Positions 693 to 9,131 of a DNA stretch of 9,401 bases are shown here, one piece after another. The stretch is from a virus (lineage: Duplodnaviria > Heunggongvirae > Uroviricota > Caudoviricetes). The stretch is taken from the IMG/VR virus record IMGVR_UViG_2537561618_000016, positions 1 through 9,401 of that record. One strand, 5' to 3'. Below the pieces are notes generated by a model. The model saw only the letters and a program-made list of their open reading frames with translations. It was not told the origin of the DNA and did not search any database. A program made the translations under genes and the position numbers. Every line of letters starts with the position of its first letter. The first letter of the stretch is position 1.

Positions 693-1979
693 CTATATAC
701 GTTCCGGTGGGAGTACTGGGCACTGAAATCCCCACCGGTCCCAGTCGTGAGCCTCTGTATGACTGCCCCCTGACAAGTCTGATGACTTTATCACCGTCAG
801 CTTCTCCTGGTACGCAGCAATAATCAGCCCGCCAATGTCAGGGTCTCCCCATCTGTTGCGGACAGAGCTCGCCACGATTCTGTAAATAATATCTTCTGTG
901 GTTATATTTATTTTCACCCAGCCAGTCAGTCTGGATATGGGCCAGTAGCAGTAGCGGGTGTGATAAATGGGGCCGTTAATGCCGTAAAAAGTAAGGGATT
1001 TGGCTCTGTACCGCGGTTCTGTTGTCTCAGGGCGTGCATCAGTCCACCGGATGCTGAGCACCCCTTCAAACCGTGTGTCGGGTATGATGATGCCGTAAGG
1101 GCCAGCAACGGAATATTCACCTGGCAGCGCATTCCTTACCCAGGCCAGGAAATCACTCTTAGTGTCAAAACGGATAACATCTTCAGGCAGAAAAGCACAC
1201 CCAAAGCCGAATGCGCCGGGTATCGCCAGACGGCCTTTTGTCCGGTCGTAAATGTCGCTCTGTGCTTCCATCGTGGCCGCACTTTTCAGCCCCAGATTAT
1301 CCCGGGACTTCTGTTGTGCCTTTTCGCCTGCTGCTGCGATTTCAGACAGATGGTTAGCCGTTTTCAGAGTGCCGGTCAGCGCAGCATCAATGTCATTTTT
1401 GGCCTGCTCTGCTGCGCGGGCATAACCTGCGGCATCCTGTGCGCTCTGTCCGGCTGCGGCTGCATTTGCTCCTGTGCTTGTCACATCTTCCGCAGTGGCC
1501 TTTCTGTCCTCAGCTGTGACGGTTGCATCCTGTCGGGCTTTCTCCGCAAAACGTTGTGCATCATCACGGGCCGTTGCGGCTGCCGCCACATCCTGCGCCG
1601 TCTGCTGTGCGTTTCCGGCTGCGGCCCCGGCGCTCTGCTGCGCCTGCGCCACCATTTCCTCAAAGCGTTTGACGACATCCGGTTTCAGGTCGCCCTCATC
1701 AGGAGCAATCAGAAAGTCATTCAGCGTGCCGGGCTTTGAGTCCTCATATACAGCAATGTCGCCAACGTTGTACTCGTTGCGCCAGTCCTGTTTCAGATAC
1801 ACACCATATTTTCCAGTCCGCGCATGGAAACAGTATTCACCATCGTTTCCTGTCATCACATCAGCAACAGTGTTCATCACCACTTCCGGGGTGTTTACCC
1901 GGGATTTCAGAATAATATGGTATCCGGACATGGGGATACCTGCGCCATCAGTCAGCGCACCTGATATCACTACAGACAT
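693..1979 (-). CDS. Tail fibre protein (428 aa) with lambda Stf-like N-terminal anchor domain and Ala/Gln-rich shaft
   Basis: The N-terminus MSVVISGALTDGAG...VYEDSKPGTLNDFL closely follows the conserved N-terminus of lambda Stf and lambdoid prophage side tail fibres (MAVKISGVLKDG...TVYEDSQPGTLNDFL, from memory), followed by a low-complexity Ala-rich region. ATG at 1979 lies 23 nt after the upstream chaperone stop; stop TAG at 693-695. Confidence 0.8.
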   Translation of the reverse strand: MSVVISGALTDGAGIPMSGYHIILKSRVNTPEVVMNTVADVMTGNDGEYCFHARTGKYGVYLKQDWRNEYNVGDIAVYEDSKPGTLNDFLIAPDEGDLKPDVVKRFEEMVAQAQQSAGAAAGNAQQTAQDVAAAATARDDAQRFAEKARQDATVTAEDRKATAEDVTSTGANAAAAGQSAQDAAGYARAAEQAKNDIDAALTGTLKTANHLSEIAAAGEKAQQKSRDNLGLKSAATMEAQSDIYDRTKGRLAIPGAFGFGCAFLPEDVIRFDTKSDFLAWVRNALPGEYSVAGPYGIIIPDTRFEGVLSIRWTDARPETTEPRYRAKSLTFYGINGPIYHTRYCYWPISRLTGWVKINITTEDIIYRIVASSVRNRWGDPDIGGLIIAAYQEKLTVIKSSDLSGGSHTEAHDWDRWGFQCPVLPPERI

Positions 1980-2002: not shown

Positions 2003-2547
2003 TCAGGAAGAACCTTCCGGAGAGGCGGGCCATTCAATGGCGTTGTATGAGGATTTATCAGTGATGGTGCTGAAATCCATCGCCTGCAGCGATTTCGCGT
2101 AAATACGACAGGCTTTCAGCTTTTCTTTATCTTCGTCGCTGATTAACCCCAGCAGCAGGTCTTCTTCCCATTCCCCTGTCCGGGCACTGACCTGAGCCAG
2201 AAGGGCATCACGCTCATCTTCCGCTTTGAGTCTGTAGTCAAAGACAAATTCATCATTGCGGTAAAACCAGTAACCCGGCGCGGTAATCCGTCGGTTAGTG
2301 GTAATATCCGGAACTTCGATAACGCTGGCATTGCGTGGCTCGATGCCTGTCACATCCTTACCGACCCACACCACGCGACCATCTCCGGTGTAAGCTATTT
2401 TTATTGTGTCGCTGGCGAAATTCTTCAGCTCTTCATACCAGTTTTTCCGTCTTCTGAAAAAAGCCAGGTGACCGAATATCGTTTTGTCATCTGATATTGT
2501 TCTGCTGTTTTCGGATTACCCGCAGTAATATTTTTTAAATGCAACAT
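2003..2547 (-). pseudogene. Tail fibre assembly protein (lambda Tfa / e14 TfaE family), frameshifted as sequenced at a 5-T run (plus 2442-2446)
   Basis: ATG at 2547-2545 encodes [35 protein letters not shown], matching the canonical Tfa N-terminus ([19 protein letters not shown]...YTEDGKNWYEE). After the A5 run the Tfa sequence continues in the -1 frame (NWYEELKNF...SVIEVPDITTNRR...ISDEDKEKLKACRIYAKSL...IEWPASPE) to the stop at 2003-2005. One extra A restores a ~181 aa protein. The start is 2 nt after the fibre stop, suggesting translational coupling. Confidence 0.85.
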
Positions 2548-3035
2548 TGTTAAATACTCGCTACGTTATACCAGGTGCCATTAATCAGTTTTTGCAGTGG
2601 TCGGTAATACACACCGTCAACGTTATCCGCTGAGTTACGGCCGGTATCCGATATCGCCATCCCTGACAGCCCGTGTCCCGAAGGTGCGCAAAATCTCCAC
2701 GAAACGGTGTTACTGCCGGGGCTGTAATACATTTCATGGCCATACCGTACATCCTGTACCCCCTCTGTTCGATATTTATAGCGGGCATCGAAGTTTCCGT
2801 AATTTAACGGAATTACCTGTCCGTTAACAGTGAACACTATGCTGTTATCCGGGTTTCTCTGGCTGAAAAAATGCCAGCCTGAATCATCACCAAGCTCTGC
2901 AACAACAGGCCTGGATGGATTACCCCACAAATAAAACGCTGCATTTTTCGTGGAGTTGTTGGCGCTGGATAACGTGAATTTTCTGGCAGTTCCGGCCTGA
3001 ATATTCTTAAAAGCAATAGCCACTCCATTCTGAAA

Positions 3036-3040
3036 GCGGA
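3036..3040. repeat. IS2 target site duplication, left copy (GCGGA)
   Basis: Identical 5-mer gcgga immediately flanks both IS2 ends (3036-3040 and 4372-4376); IS2 makes 5-bp duplications. Confidence 0.85.
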
Positions 3041-3081
3041 TAGACTGGCCCCCTGAATCTCCAGACAACCAGTATCACTTA
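3041..3081. repeat. IS2 left terminal inverted repeat (approx. 41 bp, imperfect)
   Basis: Aligned by eye against the reverse complement of 4331-4371; shared TCCAGACA and TATCACTTA blocks with one gap. Confidence 0.7.
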
Positions 3082-3131
3082 TTTAAGTGATAGTCTTAAT
3101 ACTAGTTTTTAGACTAGTCATTGGAGAACAG

Positions 3132-3497
3132 ATGATTGATGTCTTAGGGCCGGAGAAACGCAGACGGCGTACCACACAGGAAAAGATCGCAATTGTTCAG
3201 CAGAGCTTTGAACCGGGGATGACGGTCTCCCTCGTTGCCCGGCAACATGGTGTAGCAGCCAGCCAGTTATTTCTCTGGCGTAAGCAATACCAGGAAGGAA
3301 GTCTTACTGCTGTGGCCGCCGGAGAACAGGTTGTTCCTGCCTCTGAACTTGCTGCCGCCATGAAGCAGATTAAAGAACTCCAGCGCCTGCTCGGCAAGAA
3401 AACGATGGAAAATGAACTCCTCAAAGAAGCCGTTGAATATGGACGGGCAAAAAAGTGGATAGCGCACGCGCCCTTATTGCCCGGGGATGGGGAGTAA
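3132..3497 (+). CDS. insC: IS2 transposase OrfA (InsC), 121 aa
   Basis: [56 protein letters not shown]... matches IS2 InsC. GGAGA Shine-Dalgarno at 3123-3127 precedes ATG 3132; the ORF-track start at 3087 is an upstream extension. Confidence 0.9.
3449..3455 (+). other. IS2 programmed -1 ribosomal frameshift heptamer A AAA AAG (makes the InsCD fusion transposase)
   Basis: The heptamer is in the insC zero frame (gca aaa aag tgg); the insD frame is -1 and open from this point. Confidence 0.8.
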
Positions 3498-4360
3498 GCT
3501 TAGTCAGCCGTTGTCTCCGGGTGTCGCGTGCGCAGTTGCACGTCATTCTCAGACGAACCGATGACTGGATGGATGGCCGCCGCAGTCGTCACACTGATGA
3601 TACGGATGTGCTTCTCCGTATACACCATGTTATCGGAGAGCTGCCCACGTATGGTTATCGTCGGGTATGGGCGCTGCTTCGCAGACAGGCAGAACTTGAT
3701 GGTATGCCTGCGATCAATGCCAAACGTGTTTACCGGCTCATGCGCCAGAATGCGCTGTTGCTTGAGCGAAAACCTGCTGTACCGCCATCGAAACGGGCAC
3801 ATACAGGCAGAGTGGCCGTGAAAGAAAGCAATCAGCGATGGTGCTCTGACGGGTTCGAGTTCTGCTGTGATAACGGAGAGAGACTGCGTGTCACGTTCGC
3901 GCTGGACTGCTGTGATCGTGAGGCACTGCACTGGGCGGTGACTACCGGCGGCTTCAACAGTGAAACAGTACAGGACGTCATGCTGGGAGCGGTGGAACGC
4001 CGCTTCGGCAACGATCTTCCGTCGTCTCCAGTGGAGTGGCTGACGGATAATGGTTCATGCTACCGGGCTAATGAAACACGCCAGTTCGCCCGGATGTTGG
4101 GACTTGAACCGAAGAACACGGCGGTGCGGAGTCCGGAGAGTAACGGAATAGCAGAGAGCTTCGTGAAAACGATAAAGCGTGACTACATCAGTATCATGCC
4201 CAAACCAGACGGGTTAACGGCAGCAAAGAACCTTGCAGAGGCGTTCGAGCATTATAACGAATGGCATCCGCATAGTGCGCTGGGTTATCGCTCGCCACGG
4301 GAATATCTGCGGCAGCGGGCTTGTAATGGGTTAAGTGATAACAGATGTCTGGAAATATAG
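3455..4360 (+). CDS. insD: IS2 transposase OrfB (InsD), DDE catalytic domain, 301 aa; expressed as InsCD fusion by -1 frameshift
   Basis: The 301-aa ORF in the -1 frame relative to insC matches IS2 InsD (...[42 protein letters not shown]...). Confidence 0.9.
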
Positions 4361-4371
4361 GGGCAAATCCA
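4331..4371. repeat. IS2 right terminal inverted repeat (approx. 41 bp, imperfect)
   Basis: The reverse complement TGGATTTGCCCCTATATTTCCAGACATCTGTTATCACTTA aligns with the left end. Confidence 0.7.
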
Positions 4372-4376
4372 GCGGA
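4372..4376. repeat. IS2 target site duplication, right copy (GCGGA)
   Basis: See the left copy at 3036-3040. Confidence 0.85.
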
Positions 4377-5257
4377 ATACACGCTGACTATTAGCATAAA
4401 CATCCAGAATACCGTCTCCATTCTGTTTAAATCCGGTGTCATTATCACCAAGAACAATTGAATTCCCCCCCAGGGCGTTCTGAACGCCGATACCCAGCGC
4501 ACCATTGACCTGCGAACCACCGCCAACAGACACTTTATGCGACATGGATATTTCACCCGTCCGCAAATTAATGGTGAACGGGCGCAGGGGACCAATATCG
4601 CCATTTTCCCCCTGACCTTCACTGGTGGGAATAAGGTGCAGGCACTCTTCCGAACGACGAAAAATCAGGCCAAAAGCTTCGTTGAAAATCCTCAGCGCAT
4701 TAACACCACGGATTTTCAGCTCTCCGGTTATTTTATCGCCTTCCCGATGAACATAGCGTTGATCTGACTGCTCTTTACTGTAAACCTGAAGATTATCCCG
4801 TGCCGTCCCTTTATTCTGAAGGTCTGACAGATTGTTCTTCTGCCGCAGGAATATCCTTTTCGGATCCTCAAGAAGATTTACCCAGCCCGCACTGTCGGAG
4901 CCTTCAGGATCGGTCAGGTTATCGTCCGTGGTATTCAGCCAGACCGCTGTTGTTGCGACTCCGGCGAGAATGGCTCCTTTTGCATATCCACCAATGGCCC
5001 CCGCAAAACCGGCATTATACGTGTACAAACCGCCAGCCTGGGCGAACCGTATTGCTGCGGTAATATCGTACATCAGACCGTTAAAATCCTTGCCGTGTGG
5101 CGGTATACCTCCCGCTGAGACCGCTGTCATGGTCACCGGAGGAAAACCTGAATCATACGCAGCATTACCGCTCTCTCTGGTCTGCTGTGTCGCCTTGTCC
5201 GGGATACGGTTTTTATCTCCGGTACTCGCAAAGGGGACCGCCAGCTGGCGGGGTTTA

Positions 5258-5863
5258 TCACTGGCCTTCATTACGGGACTCCTTTAAAACTACTGAAACA
5301 TAAACACCCGGCGGGGATGGCAGTGCACCCGACGACTGGATAATCGCCAGTTCTGCCAACGAGAGCGCGGACTCAAAGACGTAACTCATCCTCAGCCCGC
5401 CATTATTCAGAACATAAGCCCGGCGTTTTTTTCCGAACATAAATCTCAGCATCAGGTTAATATCCGGAACGGAACAGTCAGTAATGTTCGACATGGCTTT
5501 CATCAGTATCAGCCGCCAGTATACAGCATCAGACAGGTCAACAGTCCGGGTATCCGATTTTCCGTTGTAAAACGGTGCCTGATTAAACGGACAGGGATCA
5601 TCCATTACCGGGGTGTCCATCCTGGACTCGCTGAAGCCCAGGTAATTAAAATCGTCCTTTACCGTCAGCCAGCAACTGACACCCACAATCTTTCCCCAGA
5701 CATCAAGACCATACTTTTCTGCGGTATCGATGTTCCAGATAAGACCATAAAAATCACTGATAAAACTGTCGGGGGAAAGCGCTGCGTTAAAGCTGTTAAT
5801 GAGGGCATTGAGTCGGGGGCTGGCAGCATACTGCGCAAGCACAGTGGCAGCCACATTCTGCAC
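5258..5863 (-). CDS. Phage tail/baseplate-associated protein in the gpI (P2) / gp48 (Mu) / YmfQ (e14) position, 201 aa
   Basis: Intact ORF with GTG start at 5863 preceded by a GGAGG Shine-Dalgarno (5871-5875), 1 nt after the upstream stop. Its 3' end overlaps the fibre start by 14 nt. It sits between a J-like gene and the tail fibre, as in the P2 J-I-H-G and Mu gp47-gp48-S-U order. The family assignment is by synteny and size, not a confident sequence match. Confidence 0.6.
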
Positions 5864-5864
5864 G

Positions 5865-6566
5865 TTATGCCTCCTGGAGTTTCACACTGATATCCGACAC
5901 ATCCAGAACCGGAATCTCATCTATCCCGAAAGTGACAGCCGTTGTCCATGACGAACCATCACGGCTCACAGTAAGGCCCAGAATATCAATATGTTCCGGA
6001 TCGGTTTTGTAAATGCCGGCATAGTAGCGCCCGGCAGAGACAACAGAGGCAACTCTTGCCCGCAGACCACCATCTGTACCATTAAATGCGTCCAGCACGG
6101 ATTGCTGTACCTGTCGGGTAATATCTGAAGGCAGGTAGTCACTTTTTTTCAGCGTCACACTGACATGCAGACTGACGGGTTTGAGTGTCTGCCAGCTGAT
6201 CACGTATTCAGGATACGGCGGATCGTACTCCTTATCTGCAACAGTGAACGTTGTGTTGCCATTCATATCAATACCCGGCGGAGCCTTACGCCAGATGGCC
6301 GCCGCGATATCTGCCGGGCTGCCGCCGTACACGCCAACATAAAGCGAACCGGGTGTTAATGGATACTGACTGACTCCGGCTTTTTGTTCTGTTTTTTTCG
6401 GATTATGGGTGACGTAAACATCCACCACGTTTTCTACCGTGGAGAGTATTTCACCCCGGATGGCTTCCAGAATATTCCGGGCATTACGGGCAACTGAATT
6501 ACGTCGGCGGTTTTCAAAGTCCGCACGGGTTTCCTCATCGCTGCCCGGCACACCGGCACGGGCGTT
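5865..6566 (-). pseudogene. Baseplate assembly protein J-like (P2 gpJ / Mu gp47 position), 5'-truncated at the IS600-like element
   Basis: The reading frame is open from the IS boundary (6566) to the stop at 5865-5867 (233 codons), with no credible start or Shine-Dalgarno. It is immediately upstream of the gpI-like gene. The J-family assignment is by synteny only. Confidence 0.5.
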
Positions 6567-6630
6567 TGAGGTAGCCTGAGTTTAACGGACACTCCTTCCT
6601 GAAATAGAATGGCATCAGAAGGAGCTAATA

Positions 6631-6918
6631 ATGAGCAGAAAAACCCAACGTTACTCTAAAGAGTTCAAAGCCGAAGCTGTCAGAACGGTTCTTGAAAATC
6701 AACTTTCGATCAGTGAAGGCGCTTCCCGATTATCTCTTCCTGAAGGCACTTTAGGACAATGGGTTACCGCCGCCAGAAAAGGGCTCGGTACTCCTGGTTC
6801 CCGCACGGTGGCTGAACTGGAATCTGAAATTCTGCAACTGCGTAAGGCGTTAAATGAAGCTCGCCTTGAGCGAGATATATTAAAAAAGCAACAGCGTATT
6901 TTGCACAGGAGTCACTGA
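6631..6918 (+). CDS. IS600-like transposase OrfA (HTH DNA-binding), 95 aa as sequenced
   Basis: MSRKTQRYSKEFKAEAVRTVLENQLSISEGASRLSLPEGTLGQWV...LERDILKK is an IS3-family OrfA. The C-terminal tail KQQRILHRSH looks aberrant; the -1 frame gives the expected ATAYFAQESLKNTR ending. Confidence 0.85.
   Translation: MSRKTQRYSKEFKAEAVRTVLENQLSISEGASRLSLPEGTLGQWVTAARKGLGTPGSRTVAELESEILQLRKALNEARLERDILKKQQRILHRSH
6882..6888 (+). other. A AAA AAG slippery heptamer of IS600-like orfA (A6 tract); orfB frame opens here but is +1, not -1, to orfA
   Basis: Codons tta aaa aag are in the orfA frame; the orfB frame (KSNSVFCTGVTEKYALIEQWRQQFPIEVMCQVF...) is open from 6884. Confidence 0.6.
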
Positions 6919-6964
6919 AAAATACGCGTTAATCGAACAATGGCGACAACAATTTCCCATTGAA

Positions 6965-7786
6965 GTGATGTGTCAGGTATTTGGTGTATCCAGGAGCGGT
7001 TATTACAACTGGGTACAGCATGAACCCTCAGACAGAAAACAAAGTGATGAGCGGCTAAAACTGGAGATTAAGGTGGCACATATCCGCACTCGCGAAACAT
7101 ATGGAACCCGGCGGCTCCAGACGGAGCTGGCAGAGAATGGCATCATCGTTGGTCGTGACCGACTGGCACGTCTTCGTAAGGAGCTGAGGCTACGCTGTAA
7201 GCAGAAACGCAAGTTCAGAGCGACTACGAACCCGAACCACAATCTGCCAGTTGCGCCAAATCTGCTGAACCAGACGTTCGCTCCTACAGCACCAAATCAA
7301 GTCTGGGTGGCGGACCTGACGTATGTTGCCACACAGGAAGGATGGTTGTACCTCGCTGGCATCAAAGATGTTTATACGTGCGAAATTGTCGGCTACGCCA
7401 TGGGAGAGCGCATGACAAAAGAGCTGACAGGTAAAGCCCTGTTTATGGCGCTCAGGAGCCAGCGCCCACCTGCCGGGCTAATCCACCACTCTGATCGAGG
7501 TTCACAGTACTGCGCATACGATTACCGGGTCATACAGGAGCAGTTTGGTCTGAAAACATCAATGTCGCGTAAAGGTAACTGTTACGACAACGCTCCGATG
7601 GAAAGCTTCTGGGGAACGCTGAAAAATGAGAGCCTGAGCCACTATCGTTTTAATAACCGGGATGAAGCCATCTCAGTAATACGGGAATACATTGAGATTT
7701 TCTACAATCGTCAGCGTCGTCACTCTCGTCTGGGGAATATCTCCCCGGCAGCCTTCAGGGAAAAACATCATCAGATGGCTGCTTAA
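6965..7786 (+). CDS. IS600-like transposase OrfB (DDE integrase-type catalytic domain), 273 aa from the first in-frame start; frame open from 6884
   Basis: IS3-family OrfB hallmarks: SRSGYYNW, WVADLTY, HSDRGSQY, NAPMESFWGTLK, YNRQRRHS. Confidence 0.85.
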   Translation: MMCQVFGVSRSGYYNWVQHEPSDRKQSDERLKLEIKVAHIRTRETYGTRRLQTELAENGIIVGRDRLARLRKELRLRCKQKRKFRATTNPNHNLPVAPNLLNQTFAPTAPNQVWVADLTYVATQEGWLYLAGIKDVYTCEIVGYAMGERMTKELTGKALFMALRSQRPPAGLIHHSDRGSQYCAYDYRVIQEQFGLKTSMSRKGNCYDNAPMESFWGTLKNESLSHYRFNNRDEAISVIREYIEIFYNRQRRHSRLGNISPAAFREKHHQMAA

Positions 7787-7829
7787 AAAAAGAACAAATG
7801 GTAGTGTCCGCTATTGCCAGTACACCTCA

Positions 7830-8926
7830 TTTTACAGCCCCGTCCGGGCTGTATGTTTTCACCAGCTTATCCAGTGATCGTTTTGAAAATGGCTGCATTG
7901 GATCACGTGGCTGCAAAAATACATAATCCCTGTTGCACTCAGGAACTGAATCACGCCAGGCTTTCTGCTCGTCGATAATCCGCCGGATCTCAGGCGTTAT
8001 CGGCAGGCGGAAAGCCTTTTGTGTTTTCATAGCCCCTCGCATGCCGATAACCCCTTCCGGATAAACAATTTCACCAGCCTCCTCGTAAACGTAGTCCCAG
8101 CGCAGGTTATGGACATTAATCGGACGAACACCAGTGATGATCATGAAGCGAACAGCATTCTTCTGGTGTACAGAGGTGCAGGCAGCAACATTGAGCCAGA
8201 GTCGGGCGATTGATTCAATATCGGTAAAAAGCCGTGTGGGGGTAGGTTTCTGTACGCGGGAGGAAACATAATCATCTGGCAGACTGGCGGCAACATTGCG
8301 GCCGTTGCAAAGAGTAGGTGCGCAGAACTTCCAGAACCGACGGAGCTCGGCAAACAACTCCAGGGCGTTATTGTTCGAGCGAGTGGCGATCCACTCGTCC
8401 AGCACTTCCACCAGCCGATTGTATGTTACGTCGCTGAACACCTCACGCTCGCCGAACGTTGCTTTAATCCGGTCGATACGCACCCCGTAGGTTGTGAAAC
8501 TGTCCGGGCTCAGCTTCTGCCGGGCTACTTTGGCTTTGGGTCATCCCGGTACATTTCCAGCGCTGCATGTACGGACTCTGCCCGCAGTCCACCGTCAGCC
8601 ATACCTAGTGCTTTTTCGCGCGCCAGCTGGATAACGAGCTCCGGCCACTCGCCGAGCTTTTTACCTTTGAGGCCCATCTTTTTTGGAAACTCGGCGTAAA
8701 ATGTAACCTTACCGGCTTTGCTGAAATCGATACGGAGATAGTTCTCTTTTTCGTATTTGGAACGGCGAGCCACGCCGGAAGCAGCGAGGATGATTTTGGC
8801 GGCAGCAACACAGATTTTCATGTGTGCGCTGGTATAGGGGGGTTTACAGGCGTCCCATTTTTCAGATGCGGCTAAAACATCGTCATTATTGGGGCTATCC
8901 GGATTATGTGTTACAGTGCGCGGCAT
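7830..8926 (-). pseudogene. Phage integrase (tyrosine recombinase, P4-type with arm-binding N-terminal domain), frameshifted near 8529-8537 and 3'-truncated by the IS600-like element
   Basis: ATG at 8926 with AAGGA Shine-Dalgarno. The N-terminal segment (...KVTFYAEFPKKMGLKGKKLGEWPELVIQLAREKA...) resembles the P4-type arm-binding domain and stops at 8525. The downstream segment continues in the -1 frame from 8540 and carries box I (ITGVRPINVHNLRWDYV) and the lysine hairpin (MKTQKAFRLPITPEI). The frame runs into the IS terminus at 7829, and the catalytic H-x-x-R and Tyr regions are absent. Confidence 0.75.
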
Positions 8927-9131
8927 TCTCAATCCTTATCTGCGTAGGCGCAGAAAACAAGCTCACACATACAAGTCTTTTCTACGGGACAAAATGCAAT
9001 GTGTTGCGGTTTTGTGTTGCTGGACTGAGTTTATCAAGGTTAAATACACTGGATCAACATACAGTAAGTTAATGACAGTAAAGCATACAAACTCGATACA
9101 ACTTACTGATTTTAAAATGATTTAACGGTAA

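Follow-up and report, generated by a model that had tools for sequence, protein, structure and literature searches.

The tail-fibre gene in the H position of this prophage region was almost certainly split by one simple transposition of IS2, and the insertion was then inherited vertically. The window (the whole stretch of 9,401 nucleotides that was analysed) holds the entire IS2 element and both segments of the fibre gene. An intact IS2 transposed into codons 299-301 of the fibre gene and duplicated the sequence GCGGA, most likely in a single event. The insertion split the fibre ORF, leaving a 300-residue N-terminal piece that continues into 28 codons of the right end of IS2. The remaining C-terminal, predicted receptor-binding piece has no native start and would be promoterless, and as a result no full-length fibre would be produced. 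No evidence against a simple insertion was found in the analysis described below. The insertion is real and ordinary, and it is already known in the sense that it has been present in public reference genomes for two decades.

The inserted element and its ends

The initial annotation described an IS2 of exactly 1331 bp at 3041-4371 with GCGGA on both sides, and this description was confirmed base for base. The element (3041..4371) is on the plus strand, and its transposase genes are opposite in strand to the fibre gene. The left flank reads TGAAAGCGGA|TAGACTGG and the right flank reads GCAAATCCA|GCGGAATAC; on the plus strand, the junction at 3040/3041 is CTGAAAGCGGA|TAGACTGGCCCCCTGAATCTCC and the junction at 4371/4372 is GGGGCAAATCCA|GCGGAATACACG. 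The ends that define IS2, TAGACTGG... and ...GCAAATCCA, are both present, at 3041 and 4371 respectively. These ends were fixed independently by the IS2 of E. coli VL40, which has other flanks, the same terminal bases and likewise a length of 1331 bp. The target-site duplication is a 5-bp feature without strand, with its left copy, GCGGA, at 3036..3040 and its right copy, also GCGGA (TCCGC on the gene strand), at 4372..4376. The chance of finding a 5-bp repeat exactly at these IS2 ends is approximately 1/1024.

IS2 belongs to the IS2 group of the IS3 family, whose characteristics are a length of approximately 1331 bp, a 5-bp target duplication, imperfect inverted repeats, and the genes orfA and orfB with a -1 frameshift. 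The element in the window matched the known IS2 of Escherichia coli and Shigella in all of these defining features, and no difference of substance was observed. The imperfect inverted repeats IRL (approximately 3041-3081) and IRR (approximately 4331-4371) form the ends of the element and show imperfect complementarity over about 41 bp with one indel. They are visible only with a gapped alignment, as an ungapped comparison of the ends gave a poor match. The orfA gene (3132..3497, plus strand) encodes the 121-aa repressor InsC, which scored 276 bits against NF006928 ('IS2 repressor TnpA'; NCBIfam cut-off, 229 bits). The orfB gene (3455..4360, plus strand) encodes a 301-aa protein with the DDE transposase domain, which scored 727 bits against NF006918 ('IS2 transposase TnpB'; NCBIfam cut-off, 597 bits) and contains rve and rve_3 domains. 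The frameshift motif A AAA AAG (A6G) is located at 3449-3455, and a -1 shift at this motif gives an open OrfAB frame of 409 aa. In addition, the element is 99.7% identical to the PGAP-annotated IS2 of E. coli VL40. Because of the NCBIfam scores, the rve domains, the A6G motif, the open OrfAB frame, the inverted repeats and this identity, the element at 3041-4371 is identified from its sequence as a complete IS2 with intact reading frames.

The window IS2 and the VL40 IS2 differ at 4 positions. Two of these are element positions 42-43, where TT is found in place of AA, and here the centre of an 18-bp palindrome that adjoins IRL is flipped.

Reconstruction of the fibre gene

The fibre gene is on the minus strand. 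Its 5′ segment (4372..5271, residues 1-300) begins with ATG at 5271..5269 and holds the right GCGGA copy, and its 3′ segment (2550..3040, residues 301-461) ends with TAA at 2552..2550 and holds the left copy. When IS2 and one repeat copy were removed, positions 5271..4372 joined to 3035..2550 gave an open frame of 1386 nt, comprising 461 codons and TAA, as the initial annotation had proposed. The break falls between codons 300 and 301, and the target (TTC CGC T) spans codons 299-301. No other lesion is visible within the fibre gene, as the excised frame is fully open.

The 5′ segment as it stands reads into the right end of IS2, also as first described. The resulting fibre::IS2 fusion ORF (4285..5271, minus strand, 328 aa) consists of 300 fibre residues and 28 IS-encoded residues, with the extra codons coming from the IRR end and the stop at 4285-4287. 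The earlier description of the 3′ segment as startless holds as far as native starts are concerned. Within the IRL, however, the TTG at 3066-3068 opens a mechanical ORF of 172 aa (2550..3068, minus strand) that runs into the fibre 3′ segment. This ORF was listed by gene callers in all ten of the related chromosomes compared below. A Shine-Dalgarno-like sequence was looked for upstream of its TTG and none was found; the 172-aa ORF is probably not a gene. The annotated 328-aa and 172-aa ORFs are the halves of one 461-aa fibre gene, and loss of fibre function is the expected outcome of this split.

Uninterrupted alleles

Closer comparators for the fibre came from searches with the excised gene and its protein. 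Full-length uninterrupted alleles of 461 aa, with 97-99% protein identity, were found in S. flexneri, S. boydii, S. dysenteriae and E. coli. At the insertion site the uninterrupted alleles (L017-L024) read GTATTCCGCTTTCAG, with a single TCCGC target. The 5′ segment of the window is in the identical frame to residues 1-300 of intact 461-aa alleles. The closest alleles were those of S. flexneri draft genomes, with 7 differences from the excised gene in 1386 nt; the S. boydii alleles, including that of CP000036, have 26 differences over the same length. These alleles appear to be homologous comparators of the fibre gene: the uninterrupted copies of S. boydii lie in another chromosomal context, and the S. 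flexneri draft contigs with the uninterrupted allele are too short for flanks and are approximately 2% different from the window outside the fibre gene. The uninterrupted allele that the initial annotation had advised looking for in related strains thus exists, with 461 aa and one copy of the target.

Alignment was also unbroken across VFR|FQNG in intact homologues of 466, 466, 402 and 410 aa from prophages of enteroinvasive E. coli (EIEC) and of E. coli. L001 (410 aa) and L002 were considered as intact comparators and were set aside, as they carry a different mosaic allele that has diverged across 2829-3040 and 4372-4733.

Relationship to other phage fibres

No Pfam or NCBIfam model matched the excised 461-aa protein. 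Among the PHROG families, it matched the tail-fibre families 6859 (8.9e-124) and 454 (1.8e-105). The excised protein was then compared to phage genomes by tblastn, and four fibres gave single-piece alignments that ran through residues 300/301: P2 gpH (61% identity, query residues 255-461), P1 S (50%, residues 183-460), the SfMu fibre (45%, residues 181-461) and an Actinobacillus phage fibre (66%, residues 170-461). Continuity of the reconstructed ORF across the junction, on which the first description had staked its interpretation, was therefore observed with P2 gpH, P1 S and SfMu as well as with the intact homologues.

The fibre is composed of parts with different relationships. Residues 1-178 are of the type found in DUF2612 prophages, residues 179 to approximately 260 are as in a Mu-like prophage (L006), and the C-terminus is shared. 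In the stretch of approximately 179-260 the fibre differs in mosaic type from the EIEC copies found at this chromosomal site. The C-terminal 200-280 residues resemble P2 gpH, P1 S and SfMu, whereas the first 178 residues show no relationship to P2 H and are of the kind carried by Shigella and EIEC prophages with a DUF2612-type baseplate (PHROG 11982/12796). An N-terminal P2 H-like attachment domain was not found by tblastn, in which residue 255 is the first to match P2 H. Because the P2 H matches start at this residue and the N-terminus falls into other PHROGs, the alignments identify the fibre as a mosaic with a P2 H-like distal end and not as a P2 H orthologue. The fibre 3′ segment is the predicted receptor-binding end and is P2 gpH-like.

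The surrounding prophage

The order of genes around the fibre, with baseplate J, wedge, fibre and Caudo_TAP chaperone, is the P2 J-I-H-G order. By this synteny with the position of P2 H, it was reasonable for the initial annotation to call the gene the primary fibre gene. A DUF2612 baseplate-wedge gene (5258..5863, minus strand; PF11041, 207 bits) lies directly upstream of the fibre gene in the gene I position of the P2-like order and overlaps the fibre start by 14 nt. Downstream of the fibre gene is the tail-fibre assembly (chaperone) gene (2003..2547, minus strand; Caudo_TAP). After the chaperone gene there is a second fibre gene (693-1979, phage_tail_N) and then a DUF4376 gene, an arrangement that differs from the P2 gpH/Mu S/P1 S type. 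No invertible segment flanking the fibre gene was found in the window. The chaperone gene was observed to be one base short in the window, with A6 reduced to A5 at approximately 2441, when it was aligned with four other related loci.

Upstream of the wedge gene only the 3′ 702 nt of a baseplate J/gp47 gene are present (5865..6566, minus strand). The match ends at 6566; intact homologues have 1242 nt, and the remaining part is absent in the window. IS600 (6567..7829, plus strand) lies between this truncated gene and a phage integrase gene that is broken into two pieces, 7827-8483 and 8525-8932. The flanks of IS600 are GTT and TTT, without target duplication. Because IS600 joins the 3′ part of baseplate J to the integrase without a target duplication, its junction is the scar of a large deletion in which most of the prophage was lost.

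The order of the remnant is integrase, IS600, truncated baseplate J, wedge, fibre::IS2, chaperone, second fibre, DUF4376 and ipaH. In related loci, ipaH and a remnant of a pin-type recombinase lie just past the left end of the window, and the chromosomal site, both in ten related chromosomes and in EIEC VL40, is between acpS/yfhL and yfhH. The window and the ipaH islands of Shigella and EIEC have the same gene order and the same site, and the host element is the remnant of an ipaH-carrying myovirus-type prophage. In contrast to this remnant, the EIEC copies of the ipaH prophage keep a complete baseplate module.

Other related prophages have also been hit by insertion sequences. IS4 is found in the chaperone gene of RMDEC465, IS66, IS3-family and IS1 elements are found in S. 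boydii prophage copies, and IS600 is found in VL7S7. It has been reported that 22% of S. flexneri pseudogenes are due to IS insertions and that the five IS types expanded in Shigella include IS2 and IS600 (PMC7373316). The IS2 insertion is one IS lesion among several here, of a kind that is typical of decaying Shigella genomes, and it fits this published picture.

Distribution among strains

The 328-aa fusion protein exactly matched AAP17938.1, which is deposited as 'putative tail fiber protein [S. flexneri 2a 2457T]'. Further exact deposits include ABF04715.1, ADA74954.1 and others, with 295 contigs. Through this exact match the window is identified as Shigella flexneri DNA. The wedge and second-fibre proteins of the window were exact matches to those of S. 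flexneri 4343-70. By megablast, no complete E. coli genome covered at least 80% of the window, in a collection that has Shigella outside it.

Ten chromosome-scale records with the fusion ORF were compared (L007-L016, 2.8-4.7 Mb, including AE014073, which is 2457T). They are 98.8-99.96% identical to the window, and all ten have identical junctions and an identical duplication. Their IS2 copies differ from that of the window by 0-4 nt in nine records, and the copy in the tenth is 1330 bp. Because the junctions are identical in the ten records, we infer one ancestral transposition, a single event in an ancestor of the examined S. flexneri strains that would have been inherited vertically. By this comparison the insertion is older than the last ancestor shared by the ten related chromosomes. 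The event had initially been called datable; this is true only in the relative sense that it predates that ancestor, and no absolute date can be derived. Searches of the literature, in a scope without the S. flexneri 2a genome paper (PMC137130), gave reports on Shigella IS expansion and on ipaH loci, and none that discusses this insertion was found.

Discussion

The structure at the fibre gene might in principle have arisen without a transposition into it, either as an assembly artefact or through recombination of two IS2 copies, which would have brought unrelated flanks together. IS2 is multicopy, the window comes from a draft assembly, and many proteins of the cluster end at contig ends. However, ten chromosome-scale records that were assembled independently agree in their junctions, the two GCGGA copies match perfectly, and both flanks are collinear with intact alleles. 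These observations refute the artefact and recombination explanations, which we regard as having practically no chance of being correct.

Given a simple IS2 insertion, the order of events in the prophage can be read in two ways. The IS600-associated deletion may have come first, so that IS2 struck a prophage that no longer worked, as a selectively neutral event without functional consequence, and we lean slightly toward this order. It is favored by the state of the remnant, in which the whole stretch from the integrase to the final 702 nt of baseplate J has been lost, and by the many other IS hits in the ipaH prophages of Shigella and EIEC, such as IS4 in RMDEC465 and IS66, IS3-family and IS1 elements in S. 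boydii. Alternatively, IS2 may have killed a working prophage by removal of its adsorption fibre, with the IS600 deletion and the other lesions following later, a course of events that is credible at somewhat under even chances. The excised fibre gene is fully open and near-identical to intact alleles, with no further lesion in the gene, and in EIEC VL40 an IS2 is located in the fibre gene while the baseplate genes are intact, which indicates that a fibre gene can be hit by IS2 at an early stage of decay. However, IS2 and the IS600 junction occur together in each of the ten related loci, and the lack of intermediates among them weighs against either order; the frame that is open after excision fits both.

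The IS2 insertion probably had little or no selective effect, since what carries it is a prophage remnant that is retained for its ipaH cargo. The initial annotation had spoken of a clean inactivation. The ORF is indeed split, but the term overstates the case, as what surrounds the fibre gene is only the remnant of a prophage, with the IS600 deletion. Given this remnant state, the insertion should not be taken to say anything about a live phage. Its value is of a different kind. The insertion is a stable marker common to the examined S. flexneri chromosomes, and the locus is a textbook case of how IS expansion erodes Shigella prophages but spares ipaH, the virulence gene that they carry as cargo. 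An intact allele is available for comparison with the split fibre gene.

A second IS2 insertion in EIEC VL40

The prophage of EIEC VL40 is nearly complete and occupies the same chromosomal site (by yfhH, pin and ipaH). Its IS2 is in the orthologous fibre gene, 49 bp away from the position of the S. flexneri insertion and in the same orientation. The flanks of this IS2 are TTTTG|TAGACTGG...AAATCCA|TTTTG, with the duplication TTTTG. The possibility that the two elements result from the same event was ruled out, as both the duplication (TTTTG versus GCGGA) and the position differ. Because two independent IS2 insertions lie 49 bp apart in the same orientation in orthologous prophages, it is conceivable, although rather doubtful, that this conserved stretch of the fibre gene is a regional hot spot for IS2. 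If local DNA structure or composition is recognised here by the IS2 transpososome, then IS2 target choice could be studied at this locus as a naturally occurring case.

Deletion scar and composition of the fibre genes

The baseplate J gene, of which the last 702 nt are present, is directly joined to the phage integrase gene by an IS600 copy (window 6567-7829). The triplets that flank this copy, at 6564-6566 and 7830-7832, are unlike each other (GTT versus TTT). The IS600 junction is a deletion scar, left by the loss of most of the prophage, and the element is therefore a remnant.

The tail fibre encoded by window 2550-5271 is a three-part mosaic when read as the protein that results from the excision of IS2. 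Residues 1-178 are common to the DUF2612-type ipaH prophages, residues 179 to about 260 are identical to a fibre of a Mu-like prophage in E. coli FDAARGOS_944, and residues about 261-461, which resemble P2 gpH, are common to the DUF2612-type ipaH prophages and the same Mu-like fibre. The second fibre gene, of the phage_tail_N family, has an in-frame length polymorphism, with products of either 422-429 aa or 471 aa. The polymorphism consists of a 141-nt stretch (window 1434-1574) that the window shares with L016, a related chromosome with the fibre-IS2 fusion ORF, and that is absent from the nine other related loci and from the enteroinvasive E. coli (EIEC) loci.

IS2 in the orthologous fibre gene of EIEC VL40

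An independent IS2 insertion was found in the orthologous fibre gene of EIEC VL40 (NZ_CM177011.1; positions 6774-8104 of the locus L002), within a prophage that is nearly complete and occupies the same chromosomal site as in S. flexneri. This copy has the same orientation as the S. flexneri copy, is flanked by a TTTTG duplication, and lies at the equivalent of window about 4421-4425, 49 bp from the S. flexneri insertion site. Two independent sites in such proximity may reflect a regional target preference of IS2.

The two insertions also differ within an 18-bp palindrome that adjoins the left terminal inverted repeat (IRL), the centre of which is flipped. At IS2 positions 42-43 (window 3082-3083), the window and the nine related copies with which it was compared read ATCACTTATTTAAGTGAT, and the VL40 copy reads ATCACTTAAATAAGTGAT. 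This is the pattern expected of a hairpin template switch.

One-base differences from chromosome L016

Compared to L016, the window is one base shorter at six places (486, 805, 2441, 6142, 6881 and 8538), resulting in apparent frameshifts in the DUF4376, second fibre, chaperone, IS600 and integrase genes. Four of the six losses are within homopolymer runs of six to eight (A8 to A7, T6 to T5, T8 to T7 and A7 to A6), a fifth falls in a run of three Cs, and the loss at 8538 is of a single base. Since the assembly that the window matches, S. flexneri 4343-70, is a draft, some of these differences may be sequencing errors; the length of the T-run at 6142 does vary between finished genomes. The integrase gene (window 7827-8932) is split into ORFs of 218 aa and 135 aa, while in L016 it is one unbroken 366-aa ORF, and the one-base deletion at 8538 accounts for this difference.
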